DNA of 60,000 nt from Amphiscolops sp. MND2022. Lineage: Eukaryota. The notes beneath the pieces are model-generated. The model searched no databases. It had not been told where the DNA came from and saw only the letters and a program-made list of their open reading frames with translations. The position numbers and the translations under genes are program-made. The stretch is from contig OZ076409.1 in NCBI GenBank assembly GCA_964187785.1, positions 30,878,001 to 30,938,000 of the forward strand, given 5' to 3'. Shown piece after piece: positions 16,782 to 40,711 of this stretch; the stretch's first letter is position 1, and each line of letters starts with the position of its first letter.

Positions 16782-17866
16782 ATGCCTAAACAGAAATATT
16801 CTGGAATTATTTTTATTAAAAGCTTGACTGATGGCGAGAGTGAATGGAAGTATAGACCTGCTAAAAATGACGTATTTTGTGAATTATGTCGTATTGGTTT
16901 TAATTACGATGATTCTAATGTAAAAAGGCAATGCGACAGACACTCTACTCCGGAAAAGCACGTGAAACAAGTTCGTTTGAACGCGAAAAGACAGCAGACT
17001 CTTTCATTTGCAGCCAATTTGGTCAGTAAAAACCCTTTTTCACTGATCTTACAGAGGCGTTTGATTGTGCTAATATTCCGTTCGAAAAGTTGCAAAACTC
17101 AGTTTTTAAAGCATTTTTAGAAAATAATATTGCCCGATCAGCACCCGATGAGTGTACCGTACGAAAATCTTACCTGCCATCACTTCTTTAGAATAATTAG
17201 GATATAGTAAAAGACAACATTGGCGATGCCGATTATTTTGTAATGGTGGATGAAGCTATTGATCCCTGTGACCGCTTCTTGGTGGCATTACTAATTGGAC
17301 GAATGGATTCAGTCGAGAAGCCATACCTTATAGAATTGCAAGACGTGCCCAAAAGCGACGACTAACCATCTGCCAATTAGTAAATAAAACCCTTCATTCT
17401 TTCTTTTCATCAAATATGAATTACGACAGATTCAGACATTTTGTAACTGATGGTGCAAGTTATATGGAAAAAGCAGCTTCTGATCTGAAAAGTTTTTATA
17501 CTAATATAATGCACGTAACGTGTCTTGCTCATGATGTACAAATGGTTGCGGAGCTCGTGATTACAAAAAACGCCGTTGCCAGTAAATTCGTATCAGCTGC
17601 TGAAAAGCTGTTTAAGGGCTGTTTAAGCAGCTTACGGCATTGCCCTTACCACCTAGACACGTACAGACCCTCTGGAATACATGGCTTTTTGCGGCATTCT
17701 ACTATTATGAGCACTACGATTCCTTCCACCAGTTTTTATTTGCCCTGGAGAAGAAATGCAAAACCCTGAGATGGTCAATAATTTGATTGACCAAATGAGT
17801 AATATGGAACTACAGACTCAATTGGCTTTTATAGCCGGCAATTTTAAGCCTATTTCGGATGCTATA
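16782..17866 (+). pseudogene. hAT transposase 5' part (zinc finger and catalytic region), frameshifted
   Basis: FCELC...CDRHSTPEKH finger; YFVMVDEAID; FVTDGASYMEKA; HVTCLAH (CxxH motif). Confidence 0.8.
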
Positions 17867-18229
17867 TGTCATGATACAATCATGATACCTTTACAAAAAT
17901 TCGATGACAGAATGTACTTAGCCAATAAATGCTGTGGACCAATCAGAGGCTGACAACACCGAGATGGATGGCGATACAACGAAGTGGTCGAACATAAGAA
18001 CAGAAGATAACTTTCTCAATCTTAAGAACACTCGCTTTAACTGTTGTAAATAGTATTTCTCAGTTGTGACTTCTCTTCAATTTTTCTTCAACAATAAAAC
18101 TAATTTCTTCAATAACACTTTATTCACTCTGAGTAAAGGAAAATAACCCAGGCTAAATCTCAAGTATAAAACGATACAAAATGTTCTTTTCAAAATTCAT
18201 AGTCCTTCGCTCGGACCAACCTCATGACA
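17867..18229 (+). repeat. 5' LTR of env-carrying Gypsy element
   Basis: Direct repeat of 40344-40706, roughly 27 mismatches by eye (~92-93% identity); TG...CA ends with an 8-bp inverted repeat. Confidence 0.93.
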
Positions 18230-18242
18230 TGATGACAGGAGT
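18230..18242 (+). promoter_or_regulatory. Degenerate primer-binding site (tRNA-Leu-like)
   Basis: TGATGACAGGAGT directly after the LTR; 2 mismatches to TGGTGTCAGGAGT, the complement of a tRNA-Leu 3' end. Confidence 0.55.
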
Positions 18243-18340
18243 CTCTTTTCCTGTTCACTCAGTTCTCCTGAATGACTGAAACACGACGACCTCTGATTAA
18301 AACATAGCTATGTTCTATTCTTAAATTTGAATATTTCTAC

Positions 18341-21300
18341 AAAACTCAGCCAAAAAGCTGCAGAAAAACTCCACTTTAATTTGCTTCTTGACAATACAAT
18401 TTCTCTTCACATAAATTCCAAATGGCCGCCATTTAACCCTTCGTTAATCTACATCTTCAAAGGCACAGAAAAGGAAAACCTTAATGAATTCCCGCGACAA
18501 CTTGAAAGTTGCATTCAAGTTGCCGGTGTACCCGATGCTGATCGACATAGATATTTTCACCTTCATCTAAAAGGAGGTGCACTTACTTTTTTCGACCAAG
18601 AAGAAGCAGCAACTCGAGATGATTACAATCAAGCTGTAGCAGCCCTACGTGACAGATACCAAAAGGATCAGAGAATCCAGCTACAAAAGCTACTTTTCAA
18701 TTCGCGCAAAATGGAAGTCTCCCAGGAAAGCGCTCAGGATTTTCTCACAGAGTTACAACGATTGGTTTTGGAAGCCTACCCCCAACGTTTTAGCAAGAGC
18801 AGCTGCAGGAGGACGACCTGCAGTAGCAGCAGAAAACCGTGCTCAAGAAAGAACACGACGAGTGAGAGAAGCATTCATTAATAGAATTCCTATCAAACTC
18901 AAACGTTTTTAATGACTCAACCAGATGAAACCCCAATTGAGTAGTTATGCGCCAAAGCTTCGAGCCGAATGATTGTGGATCGTCTTTACCCGGAAGGTGA
19001 CGACACCGCCTTCAATGAACTCCGAAATTTCTCAACCAAAGATCTCCTCCCTGGAATTCATGAGTTGTCAAAAGCACAAGATGTTCTCAACTAAGAAACT
19101 GGAAAACTGTCCACAGAATTGCAAGAATTGACCAAAACCTTGCAACCAACCATCAATCAGCTAACTACGGCTCAACCTACAAACAATAATAACCACAAGA
19201 GCAAAAACAACAACTACTACAAAAACAGGCAACAAAACTGGAACAAAAACAACGGTCCTCGTGGAAACAACCCTCAGAACTGGAAAAACAATCAGCAGAA
19301 TTGGAAAAAACAATAATATCAATCAGCAAAATTGGCGACCACCAAATCCTAATTGGCAAAACCAGAAACCCAACTGGAATCAACAACGAAACAACAACAC
19401 CGCGCAATCTAGCCAGAAATACTGTAATTACTGCAACAAGTTCGGACACATACTTTCACAATGGTTTCGTCCACAACAACATCAACTTCCAGCTCCACCC
19501 TATACACAATACTCTGCCGAACTTCACAGCCCCGCAACCTATGATGCAGCCTCAGCCGATGGTACCCATCACTCAAATGCCGCCATATTAGTCACCCCAC
19601 TATGATGCAAATCAACAAGCATCCAATCCAAAAAACTAAGTGGGCCACACATTGCCCATATTTCTCCTTCTCTATCTACTAATATGACTAACTCTTCACC
19701 CTTTATAAACATCCTTTCCTCAAAGCCTCGCACTTCATTCTTTTCTGTACCACTTAATTTCTCTTTTCCAGTCAAAGCTTTAATCGATCCAGATGCTTTT
19801 CAAGTGCCATGCCCATAACCATATTCCAAAAACTACAACGTCTTTGTCCAAAAGCATAACGGACAAAAATCCAGCAACTAGCTCCGTAAAAGTGGCAAAT
19901 GGTGACTCTGTAACCACCTTTGGTACTTTTCGAGCTTCTTTTAAAATTGCAGGTGAATCTTTCACTGAAACTTTTATTTTAATGCAAACCATGAACCAAA
20001 CAATTTTGGGACTACCATTTTTTGAGAAAAATGATGTTTCTATTCACCCTAGAACAAGAACGCTTAAACTACCCAATTTGACTTTACAACTGACCGAACG
20101 GATACATAAAGATGGAAAAGTAAGTTCTCTCACTCCGAAGAAAAATTTTTTCTGACACTCTGTTCAAAATTACTCGGTACAACCGAATACATCCGAAATA
20201 ATCGCTTGTTCTCTCTCAGCTGAATCCTTCTCTGAAGGAACAGTAGCTATCGTAGAACCGAATCCGCGTTTCGAAAAACACACAGGACTTTGCGTTACCA
20301 GCGCAATTGTCAAACTGAACGACCAAAAACAAGTTTCCCTTGGGATACTTAATATCTTGCCATACAAAGTAACAGTTACAAAAAATGTTCCTGTTGCGAA
20401 AGTAACCATCTTTACAGCCAAACAAGCTCAATACTTGCACCCTATCAACCCTGATCTTCTCCTTGACCATTCAACTAAAAGTATCATCGGTCTCATTGAA
20501 GACTCTGAAACCAAAGTATACCCATCAACTGATGAGTTTTGGTTTCCTACTACGCAAAATTGCAAAGACCCAGAAAACCTCACAGGAATTCACAGAAGAA
20601 TTTATGATGAGATCGTTGCTCTAAAAGCACGAGAAAAACTACAACCAGACAAAAATCCAGAAGACCGAAAGAATTTTCTATCACAATTTACGTCGGAAAA
20701 TTCTGTTTTTAACGCTGAACAGATTAATATTGTTGAAACGTTACTTTTAAAATATCACCAAATTTTCGCAAGACATCGCTTAGACATTGGAGCAAATGAA
20801 GAATTTAAAAAGAAACTTACCCCTGAAAATGATAAGCCGATGTATACCCAAGGTCCACCGACCCCGCTCCACTATCGCGATGAAGTCCTAGTGGAATTGG
20901 CACTTTTACAATGTTGGGGAGTGATTGCAACCTTGACGTACTCTAAGTACTCAAGCCCAATTTTTGCCGTTCGTAAAAAACTCAGCCAAAAATCGGCAGA
21001 AAACCTCCACTTTGATTTGCTTCTTGACAATAAAATTTCTCTTCACATAAATTCCAAATGGCCGCCATTTAAACTTTCATTATGCTACAGCCTTTCAAAG
21101 GCACAGAAAAGGAAAACCTCAATGAATTCCTGCGACAACTTGAAAGTTGCATTCAAGTTGTTGTTGTACCCGATGCTGATCGACATAGGTACCTTCACCT
21201 TCATCTAAAAGGAGGTGCACTTACTTTTTTCGACCAACAAGAAGCAGCAGTCCGAGATGATTACAATCAAGCAGTAGCAGCCCTACGTGACAGATACCAC

Positions 21301-24300
21301 AAGGATCAGAGAATCCAGCTACAAAAGCTACTTTTCAATTCGCGCAAAATGGAAGTCTCCCAGGAAAGCGCTCAGGATTTTCTCACAGAGTAACAACGAT
21401 TGGCTTTGGAAGCCTACCCCAACGTTGTAGCAAGAGCAGCTGCAGGAGGACGACCTGCAGTAGCAGCAGAAAATCGTGCTCAAGAACACGACGAGTGAGA
21501 GAAGCATTCAATAATGGAATTTCTTTCAAACTCAAACGTTTTTAATGAATCAACCAGATGAAACCCCAATTGAGTAGTTATGCGCCAAAGCTTCGAGCCG
21601 AATGATTGTGGATCGTCTTTACCCGGAAGATGACGACACCGCCTTCAATGAACTCCGGAATTTCTCAACCAAAGATCTCCTCCCTGGAATTCATGAGTTG
21701 TCAAAAGCACAAGATGTTCTAAACTAAGAAACTGGAAAACTGTCCACAGAATTGCAAGATTTGACCAAAACCTTGCAACCAACCATCAATCAGCTAACTA
21801 CGGCTCAACCTACAAACAATAATAACCACAAGAGCAAAAACAACAACTACAACATAAACAGGCAACAAAACTGGAACAAAAACAACGGTCCTCGTGGAAA
21901 CAACCCTCAGAACTGGAAAAACAATCAGCAGAATTGGAAAAACAATAATATCAATCAGCAAAATTGGCGACCACCAAATCCTAATTGGCAAAACCAGAAA
22001 CCCAACTGGAATCAACAACGAAACAACAACACCGCGCAATCTAGCCAGAAATACTGTAATCACTGCAACAAGTTCGGACACATACTTTCACAATGGTTTC
22101 GTCCTTTCGTCCACAACAACATCAAGTTCCAGCTCTACCCTATACACAATACTCTGCGCCGAACTTCACAGCCCCGCAACCTATGATGCAGCCTCAGCCG
22201 ATGGTACCCATCACTCAAATGCCGCCATATTAGTCACCCCACTATGATGCAAATCAACAAGCATCCAATCCAAAAAACTAAGTGGGCCACACATTGCCCA
22301 TATTTCTCCTTCTCTATCTACTAATATGACTAACTCTTCACCCTTTATAAACATCCTTTCCTCAAAGCCTCGCACTTCACTTTTCTGTACCACTTAATTT
22401 CTCTTTTCCAGTTAAAGCTTTAATCGATACAGGTGTTTTTTCAAGCGCCATGCCCATAACCATATTCCAAAAACTACAACGTCTTTGTCCAAAAGCATAA
22501 CGAACAATAATCCAGCAACTAGCTCCGTAAAAGTGGCAAATGGTGACTCTGTAACCACCTTTGGTACTTTTCGAGCTTCTTTTAAAATTGCAGGTGAATC
22601 TTTCACTGAAACTTTTCTTTTATGCAAACGATGAACCAAACAATTTTGGGACTACCATTTTTTGAGAAAAATGATGTTTCTATTCACCCTAGAACAAGAA
22701 AGCTTAAACTACCCAATTTGACTTTACAACTGACCGAACGGATACATAAAGATGGAAAAGTAAGTTCTCTCACTCTGAAGAAAAATCTTTTCTGACACTC
22801 TGTTCAAAATTACTCGGTACAACCGAATAGATCCGAAATAATCACTTGTTCTCTCTCAGCTGAATCCTTCTCTGAAGGAACAGTAGCTATCGTACAACCG
22901 AATCCGCGTTTCGAAAGACACACAGGACTTTGCGTTACCAGCGCAATTGTCAATCTGAACGACCAAAAACAAGTTTCCCTTGGGATACTTAATATCTTGC
23001 CATACAAAGTAACAGTTATAAAAAATGTTCCTGTTGCGAAAGTAACCATCTTGACAGCCAAACAAGCTCAATACTTGCACCCTATCGACCCTGATCTTCT
23101 CCTTGACCATTTAACTAAAAGTATTAACGGTCTCATTGAAGACTCTGAACTCAAAGTATACCCATCAACTGATGAGTTTTGGTTTCCTACTACGCAAAAT
23201 TGCAAAGACCCAGAAAACCTCACAGGAATTCACAGAAGAATTTATGATGAGATCGTTGCTCTAAAACCACGAGGAAAACTACAACCAGACAAAAATCCAG
23301 AAGACCGAAAGAAATTTCTATCACAATTTACGTCGGAAAATTCTGTTTTTAACGCTGAACAGATTAATATTGTTGAAACGTTACTTTTAAAATATCACAC
23401 AATTTTCGCAAGACATCGCTTAGACATTGGAGCAAATGAAGAATTTAAAGTGAAACTTACCCCTGAAAATGATAAGCCGATGTATACCCAAGGTCCACCG
23501 ACCCCGATCCACTATCGCGATGAAGTCCTAGTGGAATTGGCACTTTTATAATATTGGGGAGTGATAACAACCTTGACCTACTCTAAGTACTCAAGCCCAA
23601 TTTTTGCCGTTCGTAAAAAACTCAGCTAAAAATCTGCAGAAAACCTCCACTTTAATTTGCTTCTTGACAATAAAACTTCTCTTCACATAATTTCCAAATG
23701 GCCGCCATTTAATCTTTCGTTAATCTACAGCCTTTCAAAGGCCCAGAAAAGGAAAACCTTAATGAATTCCTAAGACAACTTGAAAGTTGCATTCAAGTTG
23801 CTGTTGTACCCGATGCTGATTGACATAGATACCTTCACCTTCATCTAAAAGGAGGTGCACTTACTTTTTTCGACCAACAAGAAGCAGCAGTCCGAGATGA
23901 TTACAATCAAGCAGTAGCAGCCCTACGTGACAGCTACCAAAAGGATCAGAGAATCCAGCTACAAAAGCTACTTTTCAATTCGCGCAAAATGGAAGTCTCC
24001 CAGGAAAGCGCTCAGGATTTTCTCACAGAGTTACAACGATTGGCTTTGGAAGCCTACCCCAACGTTGTAGCAAGAGCAGCTGCATGAGGACGACCTGCAG
24101 TAGCAGCAGAAAATCGTGCTAAAGAACACGACGAGTGAGAGAAGCATTCATTAATGGAATTCCTTTCAAACTCAAACGTTTTTAATTACTCAACCAGATG
24201 AAACCCCAATTGAGTAGTTATGCGCCAATCTTCGAGCCGAATGATTGTGGATCGTCTTTACCCGGAAGATGACGACACCGCCTTCAATGAACTCCGGAAT

Positions 24301-27300
24301 TTCTCAAACAAAAATCTCCTCCCTGGAATTCATGAGTTGTCAAAAGCACAAGATGTTCTCAACTAAGAAACTGGAAAACTGTCCACAGAATTGAAGGAAT
24401 TGACCAAAACCTTGCAATTAACCATCAATCAGCTAACTACGGCTCAACCTACAAACAATAATAACAACAACAGCAAAAACAACAACTACAACAGAAACAG
24501 GCAACAAAATTGGAACAAAAACAACGGTCCTCGTGGAAACAACCCTCAGAACTGGAAAAACAATCAGCAGAATTGGAAAAACAATAACATCAATCAGCAA
24601 AATTGGCGACCACCAAATCCTAATTGGCAAAACCAGAAACCCAACTGGAATCAACAACGAAACAACAACACCGCGCAATCTAGCCAGAAATACTGTAATT
24701 ACTGCAACAAGTTCGGACACATACTTTCACAATGGTTTCGTCCACAACAACATCAACTTCCAGCTCTACCCTATACACAATACTCTGCGCCGAACTTCAC
24801 AGCCCCGCAACCTATGATGCAGCCTCAGCCGATGGTACCCATCACTCAAATGCCGCCATATTGGTCACCCCACTATGATGCAAATCAACAAGCATCCAAT
24901 CCAAAAAACTAAGTGGGCCACACATTGCCCATATTTCTCCTTCTCTATCTACTAATATGACTAACTCTTCACCCTTTATAAACATCCTTTCCTCAAAGCC
25001 TCGCACTTCACTCTTTTCTGTACCACCTAATTTTTTTTCCAGTCAAAGCTTTAATCGTTACAGGTGCTTTTTCAAGCGCCATGCCCATAACCATATTCCA
25101 AAAACAACCTTTTTGTCCAAACGCATAACGGACAATAATCCAGCAACTAGCTCCGTAAATGTGGCAAATGGGGACTCTGTAACCACCTTTGGTACTTTTC
25201 GAGCTTCTTTTAAAATTGCAGGTGAATCTTTCACTGAAACTTTTATTTTAATGCAAACCATGAACCAAACAATTTTGGGACTATCATTTTTTGAGAAAAA
25301 TGATGTTGCTATTCACCCTAGAACAAGAGCGCTTAAACTACCCAATTTGACTTTACAACTGACCGAACGGATACATAAAGATGGAAAAGTAAGTTCTCTC
25401 ACTCTGAAGAAAAATCTTTTCTGACACTCTGTTCAAAATTACTCGGTACAACCGAATACATCCGAAATAATCACTTGTTCTCTCTCAGCTGAATCCTTCT
25501 CTGAAGGAACAGTAGCTATCGTAGAACCGAATCCGCGTTTCGAAAAACACACAGGACTTTGCGTTACCAGCGCAATTGTCAAACTGAACGACCAGAAACA
25601 AGTTTCCCTTGGGATACTTAATATCTTGCCTTACAAAGTAACAGTTACAAAAAATGTTCCTGTTGCGAAAGTAACCATCTTGACAGCCAAACAAGCTCAA
25701 TACTTGCACCCTATCAACCCTGATCTTCTCCTTGACCATTTAACTAAAAGTATTAACGGTCTCATTGAAGACTCTGAAACCAAAGTATACCCATCAACTG
25801 ATGAGTTTTGGTTTCCTACCCTGGAAAATTGCAAAGACCCAGAAAACCTCACAGGAATTCACAGATGAATTTATGATGAGATCGTTGCTCTAAAAGCACG
25901 AGAGAAACTACAACCAGACAAAAATCCAGAAGACCGAAAGAAATTTCTATCACAATTTACGTGGGAAAATTCTGTTTTTAACGCTGAACAGATTAATATT
26001 GTTGAAACGTTACTTTTAAAATATCACCAAATTTTCGCAAGACATCGCTCAGACATTGGAGCAAATGAAGAATTTAAAGTGAAACTTACCCCTGAAAATG
26101 ATAAGCCGATGTATACCCAAGGTCCACCGACCCCGATCCACTATCGCGATGAAGTCCTAGTGGAATTGGCACTTTTACAATATTGGGGAGTGATAACAAC
26201 CTTGACGTACTCTAAGTACTCAAGCCCAATTTTTGTCGTTCGTAAAAAACTCAGCCAAAAATCGGCAGAAAACCTCCACTTTAGTTTGCTTCTTGACAAT
26301 ACAATTTCTCTTCACATAAATTCCAAATGGCCGCCATTTAACTCTTCGTTAATCTACATCTTCAAAGGCACAGAAAAGGAAAACCTTAATGAATTCCCGC
26401 GACAACTTGAAAGTTGCTTTCAAGTTGCTGTTGTACCCGCTGCTGATCGACATAGATACCTTCACCTTCATCTAAAAGGAGGTGCACTTACTTTTTTCGA
26501 CCAACAAGAAGCAGCAGTTCGAGATGATTACAATCAAGCAGTAGCAGCCCTACGTGACAGATACCAAATTGATCAGAGAATCCAGCTACAAAAGCTACTT
26601 TTCAATTCGCGAAAAATGGAAGTCTCCCAGGAAAGCGCTCAGGATTTTCTCACAGAGTTACAACGATTGGCTTTGGAAGCCTACCCCAACGTTGTAGCAA
26701 GAGCAGCTGCAGGAGGACGACCTGCAGTAGTAGCAGAACATCGTGCTCAAGAACACGATGAGTGAGAGAAGCATTCATTAATGGAATGCCTATCAAACTC
26801 AAACGTTTTTAATGACTCAACCAGATGAAACCCCAATTGAGTAGTTATGCACCAAAGCTTCGAGCCGAATGATTGTGGATCGTCTTTACCCGGAAGATGA
26901 CGACACCGCCTTCAATGAACTCCGGAATTTCTCAACCAAAGATCTCCTCACTGGAATTCATGAGTTGTCAAAAGCACAAGATGTTCTTAAGCAAGAAACT
27001 GGAAAACTGTCCACAGAATTGCACGAATTGACCAATACCTTGCAACCAACCATCAGTCAGCTAACTACAGCTCAACCTACAAACAAAAATAACAACAACA
27101 GCAAAAACAACAACTACAACAAAAACAGGCAACAAAACTGGAACAAAAACAATGGTCCTCGTAGAAACAATCCTCAGAACTGGAAAAACAATCAGCATAA
27201 TTGGAAAAACTATAATAACAATCAGCAAAATTGGCGACCACCAAATCCTAATTGGCAAAACCAGACACCTAACTGGAATCAACAACGAAAAAACAACACC

Positions 27301-28700
27301 GCGCAATCGAGCCAGAAATACTGTAATTACTGCAACAAGTTCGGACACATACTTTCACAATGCTGGTTTCGTCCACAACAACATCAACATCCAGCTCTAC
27401 CCTATACACAATACTCTGCGCCGAACTTCACAGCCGCGCAACTTATGATGCAGCCTCAGTCGATGGTACCCATCCCACAAATGCCGCAATACTGGTCATC
27501 CCACTATGATGCATATCAACAAGCCTCCAATCCAAAAAACTAAGTAAGCCACACATTGCCCATATTTCTTCTTCTTTATCTACTAATATGACTAACTCTT
27601 CACCCTTTTTAAACATCCTTTACAGCAAATGGTGACTCTGTAACCACCTTTGGTACTTTTCGAGCTTTTAAAATTGCAGGTGAATCTTTCACCGAAACTT
27701 TTATTTTAATGCACACCATGAACCAAACAATTTTGGGACTACCATTTTTTGAGAAAAATGATATTTCTATTCACCCTAGAACAAGAACGCTTAAACTACC
27801 CAATTTGACTTTACAACTGACCGAACGGATACATAAAGATGGAAAAATAAGTTCTCTTACTCCAAAGAAAAATCTTTTCTTACACTCTGTTCAAAATTAC
27901 TCGGTACAACCGAATACATCCGAAATAATCACTTGTTCTCTCAGCTGAATCCTTCTCTGAAGGAACAGTAGCTATCGTAGAACCGAATCCGCGTTTCGAA
28001 AAACAAACAGGACTTTGCGTTACCAGCGCAATTGTCAAACTGAACGACCAAAAACAAGTTTCCCTTGGGATACTTGATATCTTGCTATACAAAGTAACAG
28101 TTTTAAAAAATGTTCTTGTTGCGAAAGTAACCATCTTGACAGCCAAACAAGCTCAATACTTGCATCCTATCAACCCTGATCTTCTCCTTGACCATTTAAC
28201 TAAAAGTATTAACGGTCTCATTGAAGACTCTGAAACCAAAGTATACCCATCAACTGATGAGTTTTGGTTTCCTACTACGCAAAATTGCAAAGACCCAGGA
28301 AACCTCACAGGAATTCACAGAAGAATTTATGATGAGATCGTTGCTCTTAAAGCACGAGAAAAACTACAACCAGACAAAAATCCAGAAGACCGAAAGAAAT
28401 TTCTATCACAATTTACGTGGGAAAATTCTGTTTTTAACGCTGAACAGATTAATATTGTTGAAACGTTACTTTTATAATATCACCAAACTTTCGCAAAACA
28501 TCGCTTAGACATTGGAGCAAATGAAGAATTTAAAGTGAAACTTACCCCTGAAAATGATAAGCCGATGTCTACCCAAGGTCCACCGACCCCGATCCACTAT
28601 CGCGATGAAGTCCTAGTGAAATTGGCACTTTTACAATATTGGGGAGTGATAACAACCTTGACGTACTCGAAGTACTCAAGCTCAATTTTTGCCCTTCGTA
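18341..28700 (+). repeat. Four tandem copies (~2.63-kb period) of leader-gag-protease-RT N-terminus
   Basis: The aaaactcagc junction recurs (ctcagc at 18345, 20981, 23621, 26250). Copies 1-3 break at SPIF(A/V)VRK and restart; only copy 4 continues into RT. Confidence 0.95.
26327..27543 (+). pseudogene. gag: gag (copy 4 of 4; others at ~18422, ~21058, ~23698)
   Basis: FKGTEKENLNEF..QLE...LHLKGGALTFF capsid-like region; N/Q/W-rich linker; CCHC knuckle CNYCNKFGHILSQC; ends ASNPKN*; internal stop/frameshifts. Confidence 0.85.
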
Positions 28701-31671
28701 AACATTCGGGTAAATTGCGAATTTTAGTAGACCTCAGACGAATCAATCATTTAATCAGGCATGATTACGATAATCACAATTTTCCCATAGCAACATTAGC
28801 AGATGTAAATTCGCATCTTGCAGGTAAGAAGTATTTTGCTAAATTGGATTGCAGTCAAGCGTGTCATGTCCTGCAAATGGCTGACCCACTGTCAGTGCAA
28901 CTGCTGGCATTCAATTTTCTTTCAAGGAAATTCGCATATTTGCGCTTAGCTCAAGGACTAAGCCGCTCAGTTAGCGCCTTTAGTTCCTTTATGCGAAAAT
29001 ATCTATACCCTTGTATAGTTGCCGACCAGTGTTTTCAATACTTTGATGATCTAGGCACTGCAGCCAAAACCTTTGAAGAGTTCATTGCCAACCGAGAAGC
29101 CATCTTTGAATGCGTTCAAAAGACAGGTCTAAGACTCACGCCCAGTAAATGTGAATTTGGTCTAAAGGAAATGACATTTTTGACAAATACGATCACAAGC
29201 GAAGGAATGTCTCCCAATAAAACGAAAGTAACAGATTTTTTAGCCACTCTGAAACCTCCTAAAACCATAAAGCAGATTCGACGATTTATTGGGTTTTCCA
29301 GTATTTTCCTTCATTCATTCCCAAACTTGGTGAAAAACTGCTACCCTTCTATCAATTGTTACGAAAAGAATCAGACATTGTTTTAACAGAAGAACACCAT
29401 AAAAGTATCATTACTTTACGAAAAAATCTTGAACAAGCATGTCAAATGTCGCTTCGACTACCTAAACCAGACGCACAATATGTAATCTTAACTGATGCTA
29501 GTTTCTTTGCGGCTGAATATGTCCTCTTAATTGAAGACATTTCCATTGATCAAACAGGCAAAACTCACAAGACATATGTGCCAGTCTCTTTTGGTTCTAA
29601 GTATTTCACTCCAACCTATTTAATTTTGTCTATTTATGCTAAGGAATTTTAGTTGTGCACTTTGCATTTGACACATTTGCACACATTTTATAGGGAAGTT
29701 CTAAACCAGTGTTAGTTCTTACCGATAATAAATGTTTAACTAGATTTTTCCAAGCTTAAACAATTCCGTGAAGCCTTTGGACATGTGTGGATCGCGTTTT
29801 GAGTTTTAATTTTTTCCTTGGTCACATACCAGGAAAAGCAAATGCAGCGGCAGATTATCTGTCTAGAATTCATATCCAACCACACACTAAACTCGAACTT
29901 CGCTTTAATTCTAAAATACCTGTAGCTGATGTCCACCTCCATATGGGCATGCGGGTCCCTGACAATTCTGTAAATTCATTTAAATTTTACTGTGAAACGT
30001 TCAGTCTTCCGAAAAGTCTTCGTGAATCTTTTCCCCAAATTAACGCCCTCCATTCGCCAAACCCTTAGGATGATTTGGACTTCTCTGATAATCTGACACC
30101 CTTAAACTTGCGTGCGGAACAACAGAAAGATATCACTATTAGACTAGTATTATCATGGTTAGAAACAGGCCCGCCTTCTGATTTTCCTTAAATGAGCACG
30201 GAACTGCGAAAGTATCTCAAACACTTTGACCGATTAGAAAACCACCATGGTATTTTATACCGTAAATTTTTTGATGATACTGGCAGAATTTTTTTTGCCA
30301 ATACGTTGTTCCTAAATATTTGCGAAATGAAGTTTTCTATCGAGTACACAATAGCAAGTTTGCAGGCCACCCTGGCATTGCTAAAACAGCAGAACTCTAT
30401 CGTAAACACTTCTATTTCCCTGGTTTTGTTGAATTTTCAGCTAACTACGTGAAAATTGTAGCTCTTGTCTTCAAATCAAACCTGGTAAACACCAAACGTT
30501 GAAAACACCACTTTTGTCCCTTGCGACTGAAAAATATTATCCGGGTGATATGCTTCAATTAGATCTCGTAGGAAAACTACCAGAATCTGTTGGGTACACA
30601 CATACTTACAGCCAAAGACACTTTTAGTAAATATCTTTTTGCGACTCCTCTGCGCAATGCTAGCGCACCGAATGTTGCAAAACAGTTTTTTCACATTTTT
30701 ATGAGATCCGCCTATATACCAAGAGTTGTTCTCTCGGATATGGGAGCCGCGTTCACCTCTCGTGACCGAATTAAGTCGCTTACTGGAAATCAAACTGGAA
30801 TATGCCACTGTCAAACACCCAAACTGTTGGGTCCGTTGAGTGCTCTCATGCGTCTCTAGAACAATATCTTGGCATCTAGGAAAACAAAATTAAACGCGAT
30901 TGGCACCTATACGTAGACTTAGCCGTGTTTGTACATAATACAGCGTATCATGCATCCATTGGATGTACTCCAACCTTTTTGTTCCATGGCCGACAACACC
31001 ATTCACAACTTGATTTACGATTTGATAACAAACGTTTGCAAACACTTGAAACACGATACGAATTTACGAGTACTCTTCAAGATAAAATGAACGAAGTGTT
31101 TTCCCTAGCACGTGATGCTACTATCACTGCTTACAACAAATATCGACATTTTTATGACCGAAAAGCGTCAGCCGCCCCGTTGAAAAAACATGCCTTTTGT
31201 CTACTTCTAAATCCAAAACTTTCGAACACAAATGATCATATGGGAAAATCACTCACAAAATGGCTACCTCTGTATCCAGTTGAATCTGTACTAACGAACT
31301 CGAATTACCTTTTTCGAAAGGTAGGCACCATTTACACACAATGTGTACATCGAATTCGACTTCGTCCCATCACACCACAATATACAGTCGATGACCTTGC
31401 TCACATTAACCAGTCTAATTTTGTTCCTGATCCGTCTACTCGATACGTCTCAGAATCTGTTCCTTTTGACCAGGCTCTTCCAGACCGTTTGACTGATCGA
31501 ACTTTTACTACGGCCGACGAAGTTGATGATATGCCTGCCGTCGTATTTCACTATGTTCTAGGTCGCGTGCCACCGGCGCCACCACCGCCCCCCGGCACCA
31601 TCGACACCCCAGGCTCTCCTGGTACCCCCTCCCAGTCTACCGCAGCTTTTACATGTCTTACCTCAACCTGA
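27540..31671 (+). pseudogene. pol: pol (protease-RT-RNase H-integrase), multiple frameshifts/stops
   Basis: LRILVDLRRIN, FAKLDCSQA, QYFDD (RT); ILTDAS and HIPGKANAAADYLSR (RNase H); HNSKFAGHPG, AKDTFSKY, VLSDMG, HNTAYHASIGCTPTFLFHGR (IN). The protease LIDTG motif is seen in upstream copy 2 (~22421) but is deleted in copy 4. Confidence 0.92.
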
Positions 31672-32090
31672 AGTCCTCCCTGACCGCGACTTCCTACAAG
31701 CAGAAAATCATGCTGATCTCCCTCCCGTTCTCTATCAAGCTAGGCTTGATCCTTCGACTGTACATTTCCAAGATCAACACCATCAATCGTTTTTCGTTTC
31801 TTCCTCCTCAGGAACACCATTTTCCTCAGTGAATATGCCCAATTCTTCGTTTTCCCCACCCCAGAAACAACATTTACTTCTGACGATCTTTTTACTGTCG
31901 CACAGCCGACTTCTGGTATAGTAACGACTATTACCTCTTCTACTCGTCACCCACCTTCAATGCATTCTACCCCTATTTCGAGTCATACCTCACCTTCCTA
32001 CTTTCCCAGTCCTCCTGGTTTAACCCATGAACCTATGCCGACCCTAAACTTGAAATCATCAGGTTTCAAATCTTACCATTCTGAACGAAC

Positions 32091-32125
32091 TCCTCCTCCT
32101 CCTCCTCCTCCTCCTCCTCCTCCTC
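32091..32125. repeat. (CCT)n microsatellite
   Basis: About 11 perfect CCT/TCC units in the Pro/Ser-rich region after integrase. Confidence 0.9.
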
Positions 32126-33558
32126 GTTTTCGGGATTTTCAGATAAGCTCGTAAACCGAGGACGAGCCATTGCCTCACCACCTTCCAATCCTCATCGCTG
32201 ACACGCTACGCCTCTATTTGACCTTTATAATACCCCTACTTATTCAAGTTATCCTAATACCAAACCATATTATTTTCGCCAATCGCCATCACGCATTTCG
32301 CGTCCTACTACCCCCATACCTTCAACCCCGCCCTCTTTGGCATTAAACTCCCCTACTTCCTCTTCTCTTTTTGTTGGAATTCCGTTATACCATCCATCAA
32401 CCACTCCTGTGTGACAAACCACCGACCTAGCTGCCTCTATTCGAAACCATACTGTCCCCACTACTGTTTTTCGTAAAACTCATACCACGAATACTCCATC
32501 CACTGTTACGATTACCACCATCGCTTCTTCTAATCGTCGTGACACTCGTTTACGACCCAAACCGAGCCGCACATCCTTTTTTGGTTCCAAACCATGGAAA
32601 TATACCACTTTCTACCTTATTTTTTTATATCATTTTTTCTATGATTTTGGAAAAAGTTTTTTTTTCTCAACCCAACCTTTCTCAAGGTACCCTTTCCACT
32701 TCCCACTATCTTCTGGCTTCTCTCTAGCTCCTAATTAACCCACCTAAAGCTCTGAATTACCCCCCTTTTCTACGATGTTTTTCGATGAAACTTCTGATTT
32801 TTTTTGAAAAATCGCTGTTTTTCGAGTTTTTGGCCATAAATTGTATCATAGTCCTTCTCTATGGACCCATATGATACCCCATTCTCACTGTGGGATCCCT
32901 TGCGCCACCTAGGTGTAATCTGCAGGTCCTTGGGTTCCATCCTACCCATTATTCATAGCCGTTTTCCCCAAAAATATGACCTTTTTTTGACCCCTGAAAA
33001 ATCTGACCTTCGAAGACCCCTAAAATTCTCATTTTTTGGATTTTTGATCCCGAAATAGCGGTGATCCCCCTTTCTTACCCCAAACTTCCGATTAGGGCCA
33101 AAAAATAGGAAAAATCTAAAAAAAAATTTAAAAAAAGTTTTTCTGGGGCGTTTTTTGGCCCTCTTCTCTCACATTGCATTTTTTGCCAATTTTATGTGTT
33201 TTTCTCTTTCTTTTTCACCCAGAATGGCCACCGAACCCCCCTACTAGTTCCCTACGGTTTTACTACGCATCAAATATTTCTATACCTATGGTTTTTATGG
33301 GAGTTTGATGCAAAAAACACGAAAAAATACTTGGTTTTTTTAAATTTTTCTCATATTTCTCGAAATAAAAGTGCATTTTCTTACTTTTAGGTTTGCATGG
33401 AGCTACTTCCACAGGCTTCCTGCTCTTCCTTCTCTCCCCAGGGATCCACAACAGGCCCTCGTACTCTCACTGATGTCTGTAATCTGATGCAAACATGCAT
33501 ATTTTTATAAAATCACCTAGAATCCCTAACTGACTCTCTGTGTAATATTCAATATTAC

Positions 33559-34845
33559 TCACTCTGGCTCAGGCAAATCGGGTAATGGTTCGCAATGGAA
33601 GCGAGTCCGAAACTTCTCGCCTCCTTGGATGGCTTGGCACAAGAAGCTGCCCCCTCGCCCATTGCTTTCTGGTCCGTACTTGTAACGGATCCAGCCCGCC
33701 ATGTTCCAATATTGCCAGTATACAACGAGTTCTGTTTGTAGTACCCAGGCAGTTTTTAAGATCTGAAACCATTCTATTGGTCTCTCATAGCCCATTACTT
33801 TTACACTGGAAGTACACACCTGATAAGGCAAACATCTGACCCTTACCGCCGCTTCTGAAATGCTGGCCGTCACTTTTGCGCACTCTTGTACCAAGAAATC
33901 GTTGGGTGCGGTCCCAAGACACGTGCGGCAGTACTCTTTAATTTCGGCAGTCTGCTTTGCCTGAGTAGCTGCCACTCGTAGACCCTTGCACTTTCTACCA
34001 GGTGCACTGTTCTTCCGTTCTAGATATAAAGAATTTTTTTGCTTATCCTGCATTCTTCATGTTAGACTTTTATTTTACATTAACTACCTGATTTCCTTCC
34101 GACCATCAAATAGTATACGCTGGAGAAGAAACACTCGCCTCCTACTTCTGCCAGCTCGCCCAATGGCTCTTTCCGTTTCGGACAATCTAATACCACTGCC
34201 GTGTTACTGGACTTTCTCCCTCTGATGGGTTCCCGGACACACGTATACCCGAACTTCTCACAAAGTTCAACCCTCCGTTTCAGCGGCACAGGCACTTACC
34301 ATTGTGTCCGCTTTCTTTCGTCACTTTCGAAAAAGCATGTTTGGCAATTTTGCAAGAACCTGTTAATACTTCTATATGTACCCTCTTTGCCTCATATAGT
34401 ATAACATTTCTTAGATCACACAAAAAAAAACAAAAAGTCGATGTTTTATTGTTATCATATTTTACTTGTAATTCAAATGAAATGCCACTTACTCTTCAGC
34501 TAGCGCCTTCAAGCCTCCTAAACCTGCTGGATATGCCCATCCGGCTCCAGACAGGGCATCGATGTGAAGGTGTAACCCCCGGTTGTGCTTTTTTCCGACA
34601 TCGCTCTCTCCTTCTTTCCACTTCTTCACATGAAATTTGTATAGGAGATTGTCCACTTGTTCTTTCGTTGGAACTGGCAAGAACTCGTTTCTTCTTCCCT
34701 TATACATAAGCACACCATTTTCTACTTTCAGACTGCGACACACCTTCTTAAAGTTCTCCCTCTTCTCTGCCGTCTTTAATACTGACGTATCGAGCACTCC
34801 ATCTTTCAAATACTTCACAATCGCTTCGTGCAAGAATCGCTCCAT
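33559..34845 (-). CDS. Putative spliced antisense gene: integrase-type HHCC zinc finger plus OTU-like cysteine protease (probably pseudogenised)
   Basis: Predicted exons 34845-34493, 34359-34088 and 34019-33559 join in frame via GT-AG introns of 133 and 68 nt. Motifs LLYKFH..KKHNRG..EFLQNCQTC; GGECFFSSVYYLMVG..LR; EWFQILKTAWVLQTELVVY; RFHCEP. One in-frame TAA at 34298-34296. Confidence 0.55.
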
Positions 34846-35365
34846 GATGACACTCTGAAAAAACCGACCGACAGATGGAATTCAGCCTATACTCTTATCA
34901 CTGCTATTGACTCCTCACTCTCAGTTTCTGACGAATGTAAAAGACAGTCCAGCCAAACTTTTTGCTTTATCTCACTGTTTTACTGTAACTAATTTTTTTC
35001 TTTCTTCTCGTCTCTTTTCATTTTTTCTTCTTCCCTTTTCTCTGTTTTTTTTTGCTTCGGTCGTACTGTTTACATTTCATACTAACTTTAGAGTTTTTTT
35101 ACAATCTAATTTTTTCTTCGAGACTTCACTGTTTTCTCTTTTGTTTTTTTTCTTCTCTTTCTTCTATTTCTCCACAACTGTTTGACTGTTCTTTTTTTCT
35201 TTTGCTTTTTCACTTTCATCTTTCTTTTTTTTCTCGCCTTTTTAGTTTTTCTTCTTCTTTAGTCGTCTTTCCTTCTGTTTTTGTTCATACGCCCTTCTAG
35301 CTTTTAGTCCGACTGACTTCTTTTTCTCCCTTTTTGGTATCTCCTTTTTCTTTTCTTTTTCTTCC

Positions 35366-35865
35366 TTTTTAGTCGGCGCATTTTAGAAGAAAATGAGCCC
35401 GACTATTACAGTGGCAAGTTTTTTTTCTTTTTTTTTCGTCAGACCACAGAATGTATGCGTAGTGGACACTTTTTACAGAACTACTAAAAGTACTGCACCG
35501 GCAAGCGGAATCATATCTGAGTTACTGCAAAGGGTCCCCCCTTTCGTGTACTCAATTTTTAACGTAAGATACAAAACCGGACGGAACTACAGGGTCCCCC
35601 CTTTGAATTTTTTTCGGCACTGTGCGACTTTTTTTTCGAAATTTTTTTAATGTCCCCAAAGGGTCCCCCCTTTGAGTTTTTTGTTATTTTGCAACAGAAT
35701 GTGTGTTTATAAATCAAAAAGGGTCCCCCCTTTTACATTTTTCGGCACTACGCGACATTTTCCGAAAGAAAAATTTTTTTCGAAAATTTCAAGTTTTTTC
35801 CAAAAAATGTTTTGCGCTTTTTGAGACTTAGATATAGCGCCGACTTGAGACGTTCCCGTCTTGTT
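35366..35865 (+). mobile_element. Helentron-like non-autonomous element
   Basis: TTTTTAGTCGGCGCATTTTAGAAGAAAATGAGCCCGACT start; GCGCCGACT + GACG-TTCC-CGTC-TTGTT end; internal AAGGGTCCCCCC repeats. Confidence 0.8.
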
Positions 35866-36131
35866 TCTTCTTTTTCAAACTCTGCCTGTTGTTTTCGGCA
35901 GGCTCGACAACACAGGCACAACACTAATGTGATGAGCACTGATAAAATCATGTTCACCCATACCCCAACGTGACTGGCCCCGGTCTCTTCTGTCACTGTC
36001 GCGGGTGGCAGAGAGCACTCAGGTCGGGGACTCTTCGTGAACGAGCAGAGGCGCCCCCCTCGTTCAACGTATGTCCCCTCAGGACAACACCACGACACAA
36101 AATATTCAAATTTTGCCATAGGGCAATTCAT
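35866..36131 (-). CDS. Small Cys-rich single-pass membrane protein, antisense in the LTR element, C-terminus cut by a Helentron-like insertion
   Basis: ATG ORF with Cys-rich N-terminus, hydrophobic VGVWVNMILSVLITLVL, then CLCCRACRKQ and K/E-rich sequence. K/E-rich coding-like sequence resumes beyond the insertion (<35366). Confidence 0.5.
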
Positions 36132-36566
36132 TTTTCATCTTGACTCTGAAGAACTCGAATACACATGAAAGACTTACGTTAGATGCTAGCAGTAGAAAGA
36201 GAATATCGTTGGTAATATTGTAGATAATCAACAAAGCTAACAATAAGACTCAAACAAGACAACTGTTTGTTAAACGAAGAATTCTCAAACTCAAATATGA
36301 CACTTGGTCTCACTGATTGAACATTCGACAAAAATTCTCAAACCTCCGGTTTAAATAGCAAACTACGAATTTGGTCATATTTGAATCGTACGATTTCCAT
36401 TTTTGCTCGATCATTCGACTTTCGAATCTTTCTTGTGATCACACCACCTATTCGAAGAAAAGAATTTCAACTTTGATATTTTCTTTACACAAATTTGCTC
36501 TTTCCATTTGAAAAGCTAAATCATTACAAATCAAATTTCTCCACATATCAATAAATATCAAGATCA

Positions 36567-38597
36567 TTGTCCTATCGTGTTTTTGCCCCCTACGGAATGT
36601 TTGGGATTTGCATATCTCTTTTGTTTCTCTTCTTTCCATATTTGGGAATTACTCAATCGTCGATTGCTGCCTTCGACGATTCCGATGGTCCCTTGAAAAA
36701 AGGCATCATCTTCCATGAGAACAAAAAAATATTGCTTGCTGAAAAGTTTAATAATGTGGAATTTCTTCTTCCCTTCCCCCAGTTCGCCGTATCCATCAAA
36801 TCTGACCTCAAGCACCTTCTCACCATCTTGGACTCCATGTGGGAAATGCCCACCTTTAACTGCTATTTGAACTTCACCAACACATCTATGCAGGGACTTG
36901 ATGTCAACTGGCTTCTTCCTGAGGAACAAAAAGAAGTCACTGCTTCTGAACAAGCTCTCTTGAAACTCCAACATGAAATCGCTGCCTTTTTGCCGCCTCC
37001 ATCTCCCAGTACTTCTAATGCTGATCGCCCCCGCAGAGCCCTGCCTCTAGCAGCAGCCGCTGTTGGAGCTATTAGACTTTTGGGCACCGGTATTGCTATG
37101 GGCTCTGGCGATTGTGGTTTGTCAGGTATCTTCGGCACCTGTCAATCCCGGGAGAATGCTGATGCCATCAACCGCATGTTTCAGATGACAGAATTCCTCG
37201 CCGAGAACCTGCAACATATTCACTCCTCTACGAATGAGAAATTTTTTGTTGTAGGCAAAGAATTACAAGCGATTAGGGACCTTCAACAGCAAATGGCTGA
37301 CATACAGAATGCCAACTGGCAGACAAGAACTTCTCAATTTGATGCCTTCCGTGATGATATTCACAGGATGAGGAATTGTGATCAGCTGTTGTTCACCCAA
37401 CAACAGATCAATTTTAATTTCGACACTGTGGCGTCACTTCTTTCTCTTTTTTATTCAAATGTGAAATCATACCGTGCTGCGCTGTTCGCTTATCGCCTCA
37501 ACCTCTTGAACAGCTTTCCGGCTTTATTGAACAAGTTTGTCCCTATGTCACTTCTCGACCGCCCGTCACTAGAGAAAGTCCTCACAATCGTACAGAATAT
37601 TCAAAATAAGGCACGAGACCGTCTCCCTTTGGCAATTCCCTTTCAGGAGACATTGTCATATTACGAATCTCAGCTTCTACAAGACATTGTCGCTTAACCT
37701 GAAGGATTGCTCATAACCATGTCAATCCCTTTGGCTTCGCGTCAGACGGTCCTCGCGACATACGAAGCGGTACCTTTGCCCATGCCCCAGCATGACGATG
37801 ACATGGCAATGATATGGGATACAAATGCTGATTTTCTCGCCGTCTCTGAAGATGGTCGCGAGACTGCCAGTGTGTCTCGTCAGCAACTGGAACAATGCAT
37901 TGGGTCGTCTCGTTACAACATTTGCCAACAAGGATTCGCGACTGAAGGTTCAGGTTCTTCATGCCTGTCTCTTCTTTTCTTTGGCAACTTTGTCCAGGCT
38001 ATGAAAGTCTGTGACTTGGTTCCTTACCAGTTGCACATATTTGAACGAGCAATTAACCTCAAATTTGACATTTGGCTGATCCTCTCTGCTGATGCTGACT
38101 TTGAACTTCGCGAATCAGCTAGCAATGATACAGCTCACTTGTCCACTCTCACATACCCAGGATGCCGCATTTGTATATACACGTTACCATGTGGTCATCA
38201 ACTTTGTGGACCCAATATTTTCATCCGATCTGATTTACAATCATGTTCTCGTGTGCCCTCAATCAAGATTCATGTGGATCTTCCTGACCCTCTTCAGAAT
38301 GTGCTGAGTGTCCTTCCTTCCATCGAGGAACTTCCTTCCTTCAGCACCAAATCTTTCGCCAACCTCGCATTTTTACGTTCTCTGAAAAAAGAATTAAAAT
38401 ATATCCCTCAAACATCGCTCCAGGATCGAGAAGCGCGTCAGAAACTCGCTAAACCGATTGTCATGCAAATGACTACTTTGAAAAATCCTTTTCGACGCGA
38501 ACTTAGCCACGTGACCTCTTTTACATCTACCATAATAATAGGCATAGCAAGTTTTATAATCTCTATGTTGTTATATTTGTTATTCAAGTACATTTTT
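36567..38597 (+). pseudogene. env: Envelope glycoprotein, class I fusion (F-type), one internal stop, tail displaced by insertion
   Basis: ORFs 36567-37697 and 37707-38615 are in the same frame, separated by a single TAA. Signal-like MFGICISLLFLFFPYLG; furin site RPRR followed by fusion peptide ALPLAAAAVGAIRLLGTGIAMG; heptad region; Cys-rich region; C-terminal TM IIIGIASFIISMLLYLLF. Confidence 0.85.
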
Positions 38598-39083
38598 AGT
38601 CGGCGCTTTTCTTAAGAAAAGAGTCCGACTATTACAGTCACTCGTTTTTTTTAATTTTTTAATTTAAGACAGACTCGAAGCGACGAACGTTAAAATTAAC
38701 GTTCAACTACTAAATAAGTACTAAACTACTGGACCGCTAAAGGCAAACGGGAGTGCATTAATTTACTTTTTAAACGTTACATACAAGCCCGGACGGGACT
38801 AAAGTCCCCCCCCTTTCGATTTTTTTTTCGGCACTGTGAGACTTTTTTTTCGAAATTTTTTAATGTCCCCAAAGGGTCCCCCCTTTGAGTTTTTTGTTAT
38901 TTTGCTACAGAATGCGTGTTTATAAATCAAAAAGGGTCCCTCTTTTACTTTTTTCGGCAGTGTGCGACATTTTCCGAAAGAAATGTTTTTTTTTCGAAAA
39001 TTTCAAGTTTTTTTCCAAACAAAAATGTTTTGCGCTTTTTGAGCCTTAGATATAGCGCCGACTTGAGACGTTCCCGTCTTGTT
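38593..39083 (+). mobile_element. Helentron-like non-autonomous element inserted just after the env TM segment
   Basis: TTTTTAGTCGGCGCTTTTCTTAAGAAAAGAGTCCGACT start; GCGCCGACTTGAGACGTTCCCGTCTTGTT end. Confidence 0.8.
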
Positions 39084-40343
39084 CATCGTTGTAATAATTT
39101 ACATAAATTCATGCCATTCAAACATATTTACAAAGATAAAGATAATATAAAACGTAAAATACAATTGAAACCAGTGCTATCTGTACCTTCACAACACCTG
39201 AACGTAATACAAAATGACCCCAACTTCCGTTGGCTTGGTCGTTGTCTTCTCACAGAACACCCTAATGATGATCAAAAATACACAACCATCCCTCTCTGAG
39301 TTGTCAAGGCGTTCTCTGATAGCGCCAATCAGCCCGTCCTTTTGGATTCTTGAGTGCTGTGTGTTTTGTTTTACGTACCTTTCTATCGTACTCTCACGTT
39401 ACTCTTTTAACCGCTTCACTCTAACAGTCTCTGACTGCTTCACAGTCAGATTCTAACATCAACCTCTTTTCTTCTTTAACACTATATGCTCTGTTATAAT
39501 GATACTGTAACACCTTTGCTTTCTCTCTTTTTCTTTGGTGTCTTCTCCGCAGTTCTGTTCATCATTAATATCTATACAACCACTTCTTTGACATCTTCTG
39601 ATAACTGAGCGATATTTTTCTCACTGATGTTCGGAAGATATTTTGTCCTCTTCTTTCTTCATTGTATATTTTATTGTCTTTTGCTCTTGAGTCATCGCTT
39701 TGTACTTGACTTCTGCCCCCTCCTTCTGCTAACTCTTTTATTCACATCCGCTATCAATGTATTTACCCTTTTTGACGCATTGTACACTTTCCGCTTGTAC
39801 ATTTCTCTTCGTGTTTGTTATACACCGATTATCAAATCATAGTACTAATAGACGTTTCCGTCCCCTGTTATCTCTTCTTTACACTGTTAATCATCGATTA
39901 GGCTCTCTCTAGCCTTATCTGCTGCTCCCGCAGCCCGTCTCCTTGCTCAGCAAATACCATAGCTTGCACTTGGCACGCGTTGCCACGTGCCTACTCGATC
40001 ATAAGTTTTGTTAGCAAACACCGTTACTCTTTCTCTGCTTCACTCCGTCAATATTGACTCAGTGTTTGCTGATTTGCTGGCTTCTTTTAATCAGGCCACA
40101 CCTAAAACTTCTTGCATAACCTTTTCTGCATCGCATGCTTCACATGCTTTTTCTTTTCATTCTTCTTTTCGAGACCCCCCCTTATGTCATATGTATCTTT
40201 CATTTTTTTTCCTTTCGGGCATTTGTGTTGGCTCTTCTTGGTTTCACGGATTTATTGCGCTCTTTTGTTTCATGCCACTTCACCATCTCCGCCCTGAAAT
40301 GGACTACAACCCGGCAGTTCCCCTTTTTCTTAAAAGTAGTGAG

Positions 40344-40706
40344 TGTCATGATATAATCGTGATACAATTACAAAAATTCGATGACAGAATGTATTTAGCC
40401 AATAAAAGTTGTGGACCAATCAGAGGCTGACAACACCGAGATGGATGACGATACAACCAAGTGGTCAAACAGAAGAACAGAAGATAACTTTCTCAATCTT
40501 AAGAACACTCGCTTTAACTGTTGTAAATTATATTTCTCAGTTGTGGCTTATCTTCAATTTCTTTTCAACATTGAAACTAATTTCTTCAATAAAAATTTAT
40601 TCACTCTGAGTAAAGGAAAATAACCCAGGCTAAATCTGAAGTATAAAACGATACAAAATTTTCTTTCTAAAATTCATAGTCCACCGCTCGGACCAACCTC
40701 ATGACA
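40344..40706 (+). repeat. 3' LTR of env-carrying Gypsy element
   Basis: Direct repeat of 17867-18229; preceded by purine-rich AAAAGTAGTGAG; followed by TSD CTATA. Confidence 0.93.
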
Positions 40707-40711
40707 CTATA

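Follow-up and report, generated by a model that had tools for sequence, protein, structure and literature searches.

Does the long block between pol and env of a large retroelement in the genome assembly of Amphiscolops sp. MND2022 belong to that element, and what does it encode? These questions are raised by a 60,000-nucleotide stretch of contig OZ076409.1 (assembly GCA_964187785.1, positions 30,878,001 to 30,938,000; "the window" hereafter), in which an element bounded by long terminal repeats (LTRs) occupies positions 17867-40706. A first-pass annotation had proposed a lineage with accessory genes on the opposite strand, and had named as the alternative that sister copies are 8-9 kb long and lack the block, which would then be a one-off insertion. 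The window element is an old, degraded copy of a Ty3/Gypsy element that measures ~14.2 kb and carries env. We consider it fairly probable, taking the reading as a whole, that its lineage carries two antisense genes under selection, for a predicted zinc-finger plus OTU deubiquitinase and for a membrane protein, which serve as accessory counter-defence factors.

The block (32700-35360) has at least 50 matches in the 1.07-Gb genome. At the 29 sister loci fetched, the copies are collinear and the order LTR-gag-pol-block-env-LTR is kept wherever the parts exist. Among 24 LTR-bounded sisters, 15 measure 14.1-14.2 kb, six 12.4-12.5 kb, and one each 14.7, 13.4, and 10.5 kb; 11 of the 24 have identical LTRs and, therefore, the lineage has been recently active. 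The six copies of 12.4-12.5 kb (L013, L017, L020, L053, L061, L064), which represent two families, retain the antisense block although env is largely or entirely gone. Since these 24 copies had been chosen via the block, an independent search was performed with the reverse transcriptase (RT) alone: at 39 of the 40 places found, the block is present on the side expected, at a distance of 3-6.5 kb (by visual comparison of coordinates), and the fortieth is a deletion copy, in which env is internally deleted too. Sister pol frames comprise ~1760 codons, reaching about window position 32600, and encode protease, a weak dUTPase-like region (E 0.018), RT, RNase H, and integrase, in this order (Pfam). 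Of the 4.9 kb originally assigned to the interval between integrase and env, ~1.2 kb is thus the Pro/Ser/Thr-rich tail of pol and 0.5 kb an insert, while the sisters still show a gap of ~3.5 kb between the pol stop and the env start.

On the minus strand of the block, four conserved segments bounded by GT/AG, with phases 2, 1, and 0, add up to 333 codons (353 + 272 + 173 + 201 nt), and a small ORF (open reading frame) follows toward env:

34493..34845, minus strand: exon A, 353 nt, integrase-type N-terminal domain, two His of HHCC
34088..34359, minus strand: exon B, 272 nt, zinc-domain CxxC and predicted catalytic Cys (GGEC)
33847..34019, minus strand: exon C, 173 nt
33559..33762, minus strand: exon D, 201 nt plus stop, predicted catalytic His (HCEP)
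35859..36131, minus strand: small antisense ORF, Cys-rich ectodomain, one transmembrane segment, CC, basic tail

Exon A is preceded by a probable acceptor site, located 9 nt ahead of its ATG, and exon B of the window copy contains one in-frame stop near 34297. Across copies the exons measure 353/272/173/201 or 326-356/269/173/198-201 nt, with all four frames open at the expected lengths at 27 of 54 loci; intron lengths are unconstrained, ranging from 61 to 137 nt in well-resolved copies, and frequently not divisible by 3. For the antisense gene, dN/dS is 0.07-0.20 in all seven unsaturated pairs out of 15, and in the remaining eight, with saturated synonymous sites, pN is 0.18-0.34. Other reading frames give values of 1.0-5.5, except for the sense frame that shares the wobble position, which contains 5-16 stops versus 0-1 in the antisense frame. 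Coding on the sense strand of the block was, therefore, rejected, its sole frame with low dN/dS being a wobble shadow. Judged by these patterns, the antisense genes of the block are coding sequence under purifying selection, in agreement with the accessory genes first proposed for the opposite strand, and the four-exon gene is very probably a real spliced gene.

This gene reaches far beyond the closest sisters. Exon A has at least 148 matches, with identities from 100% down to 35% (150 of 225 candidates scored); 17 of 20 diverse matches show the same retroelement layout (mostly 13.5-13.8 kb), two belong to a Polinton, and one has an ambiguous setting. A more distant homolog group, present at about 110 places, differs from the nearer one at ~58-66% identity for RT and 41-44% for env; at all ten of its loci examined, the succession of integrase, antisense exons, and env is unchanged, and acceptor 1 and donor 2 are kept. 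The block is thus found in families down to ~60% RT identity. In the RT tree the 16 block-bearing rows form one clade (100/100) versus 14 of 120 listed pol relatives. The gene tree and the RT tree have a six-member subgroup in common (77 vs. 100/97), as would be expected of a gene travelling with pol. The block between pol and env is a conserved feature of the lineage, of which, as far as the layout is concerned, we are virtually certain. A one-off insertion is ruled out by the sister loci (~14.2 kb instead of 8-9 kb), the exon-A matches, the distant loci, and the search with RT alone.

The small antisense ORF, with its ATG at 36131, has dN/dS values of 0.17-0.44 (15 pairs) and counterparts in nine of the ten distant loci. 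The version of the distant group (L143-L159) starts with a hydrophobic signal-like stretch before the Cys-rich part, and that of the window group does so without one. In a comparison with FAST-like and Shisa/WBP1-like small membrane proteins, a match to WBP-1 (E 0.001) stayed below the cut-off, Atlas values did not exceed 0.79, and for seven distant versions no relative was found.

What the larger gene encodes was approached by profile and by fold. The profile was built from the genomic exons and 126 of 127 representative database matches, P0233 having been dropped as a low-complexity false match; several of the 127 come from the source genome or one very similar (P0201, 99%), and P0205 has no close match in the source genome (45% at best). 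Searches of a phage collection, viral contigs, and metagenome contigs returned no matches. Against the Pfam-OTU domains of the genome itself, the profile obtained a probability of 83.7% and a score of 38.2, the maximum in 60 column shuffles being 12.3. Further multicopy OTU domains in this genome (L134-L137, L132) are probably those of other transposons. An AlphaFold model was made from the read-through with the introns left in and compared with 48,161 PDB representatives: ranks 1-26 all belong to OTU-family proteases (identified from the entry titles in most cases), with Z of 8.4-5.4, rmsd of 3.3-4.3, and 100-144 residues aligned over model residues ~192-403. Fold matches include viral OTU proteases (nairovirus L, tymovirus PRO), which are parts of RNA-virus polyproteins. 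Model residues 2-115 match the integrases of foamy virus and Ty3 (Z 5.2 and 4.5). The predicted catalytic Cys (GGEC) is invariant (19/19); in a wider alignment Cys is found in 46 of at least 53, His in 32 of at least 38, and Glu at His+2 in 30, and the HHCC residues and the His of HCEP are strongly conserved. The antisense protein very likely has an OTU fold; in its predicted architecture an integrase-type HHCC zinc domain is followed by a cysteine protease of the OTU fold. It is probably an active enzyme. Beyond what the first-pass annotation had claimed, the main gene is thus likely spliced, OTU-like, and, as set out below, common to a Polinton.

A combination of this kind has been described, in the available text of Bao et al. 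(2010; PMC2836005), for Ginger1 DNA transposons, which have a Gypsy-type H2C2 zinc finger, a DDE core, an OTU domain, and 1-4 introns; OTU domains occur in Helitron transposons as well according to the same text. Ginger1 encodes a transposase and has terminal inverted repeats, whereas the gene of the window lineage is cargo in which the zinc domain is joined directly to the OTU domain, with ~60 residues between the CxxC and the OTU Cys. The antisense protein hence resembles a Ginger1 transposase minus the DDE core and, by this likeness, a Ginger1 origin of the gene is plausible. It is another matter whether the block is a once-inserted Ginger1-like transposon that has lost its DDE core and is passively carried. 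The shared HHCC and OTU domains and the introns would fit, and such a transposon may well be where the gene came from, but the strong purifying selection and the splice sites kept across families with saturated synonymous sites contradict passive carriage. Moreover, the DDE core is absent between zinc domain and OTU in every copy and no long inverted repeat surrounds the block in the window, and we regard this explanation as highly improbable. An intact nested Ginger1 was rejected as well: there is no DDE core, and the window block shows only a 23-nt AT-rich inverted match, compared to terminal inverted repeats of 40-270 bp.

The same four-exon gene was also found near the right end of a Polinton family of seven copies (~97% identical, ~18 kb). 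Terminal inverted repeats are present in 5/5 copies, rve (integrase) and A32-ATPase matches were obtained, the ATPase being of the packaging type, and ORFs of fitting size have motifs that would suit a protein-primed PolB, capsid proteins, and an adenain-like protease. The three intron sites of the Polinton gene are identical to those of the retroelement gene. Compared with the retroelement proteins, that of the Polinton shows 46-56% identity to the nearer group and 30-44% to the distant one, and in a tree of 22 representative rows, with some exons missing and a root that is not independently fixed, it joins the nearer group (group 1) versus group 2 with 100/100 support. Because the gene occupies the same position in both retroelement groups, a single transfer from retroelement to Polinton is the simplest explanation; most likely, on these sequence comparisons, the Polinton took the gene from a retroelement of the window's clade. 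Nematode Mavericks also comprise a Polinton/Maverick with an intron-containing protease gene near one terminal repeat (bioRxiv 10.1101/2022.07.12.499685); in the part of that preprint available, their cargo is read as host-derived, whereas the closest relatives of the Polinton gene described here are retroelement genes. Two further features of the young Polinton family (L110-L128, L074-L077; e.g., G000:C3:67.59-67.61 Mb) are a tRNA-like stretch within its terminal inverted repeats and a tandem array of ~700 nt, located between PolB and the gene held in common with the retroelement.

How could an LTR element carry and use such a gene? The full-length sense RNA would be the genome, primed by tRNA-Leu. 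The gag and pol frames of the sisters overlap by 19-34 nt and, therefore, a frameshift is suggested; gag-pol would probably be made by -1 frameshifting and env probably from a subgenomic RNA. Introns on the opposite strand would be invisible to the spliceosome on the genomic RNA and would survive reverse transcription, so that only an antisense position could retain an intron-bearing gene in an LTR element. The antisense placement of the gene would be explained by this escape of opposite-strand introns from splicing in the retro-cycle. The small membrane protein would be made from antisense mRNA and share in the protective role. The 333-aa protein would come from a spliced antisense transcript of its own, with a likely start close to that of env. 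Its integrase-like N-terminal domain may target it to nucleic acid or integrase/Gag complexes, where the OTU domain may strip ubiquitin or a ubiquitin-like tag and thereby protect element proteins or damp signalling, silencing, or immunity. Viral OTU proteases act by stripping ubiquitin tags in such ways.

Several points weigh against this reading. A role against ubiquitin-dependent host defence is proposed by analogy, and splicing and expression are predictions from genomic sequence; a canonical poly(A) signal lies within 500 nt of the stop in only two of eight copies. Pfam and PDB sequence searches with the antisense gene gave no OTU match and no family, and PF02338 gave no match above the cut-off when single exons or intron-containing read-throughs were scanned. 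The structure model is weak (pLDDT 50, pTM 0.34, the OTU part mostly <50), just one fold match exceeds Z 8, and the env model (pLDDT 46) is too poor for use. The PolB, capsid, and protease ORFs of the Polinton are without Pfam match, their labels being motif readings, and nesting of the Polinton gene inside group 1 has an AU p of 0.5. The residue three before the predicted catalytic Cys is mostly Gly, while the usual OTU motif has Asp at this position. This altered oxyanion motif would also fit a protein with an OTU fold that is not a deubiquitinase, such as a protease that processes env, Gag, or the small membrane protein, or selfish cargo of the toxin/antidote type. The gene is common to retroelement and Polinton, and the intron-bearing protease cargo of nematode Mavericks includes a toxin, as far as the available preprint text goes (bioRxiv 2022.07.12.499685). 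The top fold matches are, however, deubiquitinases and the element encodes its own aspartic protease, which leaves this explanation very unlikely.

A role in replication deserves somewhat more weight, although we still consider it unlikely as the full account: the zinc domain would dock the OTU domain on the integration complex, where it would remove ubiquitin or SUMO at the insertion site or from integrase and aid repair. The N-terminal domain has an integrase fold, both carriers of the gene, retroelement and Polinton, use a retroviral-type integrase, and the six env-deficient LTR-bounded copies of 12.4-12.5 kb retain the block. Bao et al. propose such a role for the OTU and Ulp1 domains of Ginger (PMC2836005, available text). 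Most Ty3/Gypsy elements, however, integrate without such a gene, and in all groups examined it is accompanied by env and the small membrane protein, a combination in keeping with an infectious life style. For the OTU protein taken by itself, a defence rather than an integration role is about as likely as not. Returning to the counter-defence reading, its most far-reaching form would be that an old enveloped Ty3/Gypsy clade independently evolved the complex-retrovirus design, with a spliced antisense operon for an active deubiquitinase and a membrane protein that counter ubiquitin-based immunity, and that the gene jumped, with its introns, into a Polinton in the same host. This we put forward tentatively, as a possibility to which we do not quite subscribe.

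Env-bearing Ty3/Gypsy elements are widespread in animals, and the "ancient errantiviruses" (Chary and Hayashi, eLife 2026; PMC13524379, available text) resemble the window lineage in their Ty3/Gypsy pol order, gag-pol-env arrangement, F-like env, furin-type site, and fusion peptide, as well as in being tRNA-primed, multicopy, recently active, and of non-vertebrate-type setting. What sets the window lineage apart from them is the ~3.5-kb stretch that separates pol from env and contains two antisense genes. The errantivirus screen used a POL-ENV distance of at most 1 kb and a total of 10 kb, with manual extensions of 3-5 kb for some groups; neither "antisense" nor "accessory" occurs in the text available, and acoel terms are absent from that text and seven supplements. 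The initial statement that ordinary errantiviruses are about half the size of the present element is a little strong, since some annelid ones measure ~10-12 kb from LTR to LTR (PMC13524379, supplement 1). Plant Retand/Grande/RIRE2 (PMC11963269) and fungal Boty (PMC8365987) are also Ty3/Gypsy elements with a long post-pol region and conserved antisense ORFs, but these are without env and their domains are TRP28 and others, according to the accessible texts; in that of the Retand paper (PMC11963269), "OTU," "protease," and "intron" occur 0 times. LTR elements of bdelloid rotifers (Rodriguez et al., 2017; PMC5408684) share a paramyxovirus-like env, a dUTPase between protease and RT, and extra ORFs common to unrelated retroelements. 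In the text at hand, however, their ORF3 types (GDSL, DEDDy, TM) are discussed downstream of pol, the sharing is with retroelements and not with a Polinton, and "intron" occurs 0 times. HBZ of HTLV-1 is likewise an antisense accessory gene of a retro-transcribing agent (PMC11963269, available text). HBZ differs in being a regulator, not an enzyme. In the literature searched (listings and abstract starts, outside subscription papers and bioRxiv supplements), no OTU gene in an LTR element, or one common to a Polinton, was encountered.

Errantiviruses are treated as three-gene elements, and the distance filter of the main survey would tend to miss those of 13.5-14.2 kb. A spliced antisense enzyme gene kept over deep divergence would imply that vertebrate retroviruses are not the only elements in which complex accessory-gene layouts arose. 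Such a gene may point to ubiquitin as a pressure on germline-invading elements, an idea that a single small protein makes testable. The presence of this intron-bearing gene in a Polinton as well would represent clear gene flow between unrelated classes of virus-like elements within one genome.

The remaining features of the window copy are as follows:

17862..17866 and 40707-40711, no strand: target-site duplication CTATA, 5 bp, flanking both LTRs
17867..18229, plus strand: 5' LTR, 363 nt, 92.6% identity to 3' LTR
18230..18242, plus strand: primer-binding site, complements the 3' end of tRNA-Leu(CAG), one mismatch versus sisters
18338..26242, plus strand: three additional gag-protease-(start of RT) units in tandem, each ~2.63 kb long and private to the window copy
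26243..27543, plus strand: gag, fourth unit, broken, with Asn/Gln-rich tract and CCHC-like knuckle
27544..32600, plus strand: pol, with protease, weak dUTPase-like region, RT, RNase H, integrase, and Pro/Ser/Thr-rich tail
35371..35858, no strand: dispersed-repeat insert 1, cuts the tail of the small membrane ORF
36597..39299, plus strand: env, F-like class I fusion protein, with signal peptide, RPRR site, fusion peptide, heptad, and transmembrane segment
38598..39078, no strand: dispersed-repeat insert 2, in the env tail
39300..40343, plus strand: region from env to 3' LTR, ~1 kb, ~82% conserved in sisters
40344..40706, plus strand: 3' LTR, 363 nt, 92.6% identity to 5' LTR

The LTRs with TG...CA termini, the target duplication, and the tRNA primer site of Ty3/Gypsy elements are all present, as is the pol order protease-RT-RNase H-integrase (Pfam, sister pol frame and window pieces), and the matching LTRs and CTATA duplication reported earlier around 22.8 kb were recovered. 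The four gag-protease-(start of RT) units, starting at 18338, 20974, 23614, and 26243, are 94-96% identical. The three extra ones total 7,905 nt (~7.9 kb in the first-pass annotation), and none of the 29 sister loci has gag repeated in tandem like this. Internal tandem duplications of parts of pol, block, or env were also seen in other copies (L069, L028, L022-L023) and are recurrent in the family. The two inserts, estimated before at ~1 kb together, are ~0.49 kb each, are missing from the sister copy compared, and are copies of an abundant dispersed repeat. Subtraction of the extra units and inserts leaves ~14.0 kb, as had been calculated, which is close to the 14.1-14.2 kb of most sisters. 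Damage in the window copy consists of frameshifts and stops in pol, an in-frame stop in env, and the stop in one accessory exon.

The earlier assignment of env to the F type holds up. An alignment of ten env frames shows a signal peptide, an RPRR-type site, a hydrophobic fusion peptide, heptad helices, and a transmembrane segment; the window env has an in-frame stop at 37695-37697 besides insert 2 in its tail. The top three Atlas clusters carry PF00523 (Fusion_gly; 33, 83, and 26% of members) with scores of 0.91-0.93 and 194-202 shared features, the top 11 of 18 PDB matches are fusion glycoprotein F0, all weak (E 0.03-0.2), and Pfam Baculo_F matches one of the ten frames (E 0.008). These matches suggest that env is likely of the F type, resembling paramyxovirus F. 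A full env ORF after pol with cleavage site, fusion peptide, and transmembrane segment, as in errantiviruses in the wide sense, is thus present.

In sister copies the primer-binding site reads TGGTGACAGGAG, and ARAGORN called tRNA-Leu(CAG) at one of four genomic loci with an arm complementary to it. A long tandem array of ~296-nt period at G000:C8:35.59-35.66 Mb bears the 3' arm of tRNA-Leu, with 809 pattern matches genome-wide. Within the window, a complex tandem array at 6700-16700, with periods of 296, 644, and 1348 nt, is made of the same dispersed repeat as the two inserts. The element itself sits in a broken hAT-like transposase (17272-17866 and 40707-41048), with weak DUF659 and Dimer_Tnp_hAT matches on either side. 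Inverted arrays of 16-nt and 26-nt units at 48777-49437 and 57542-58003 are probably ends of non-autonomous DNA transposons.

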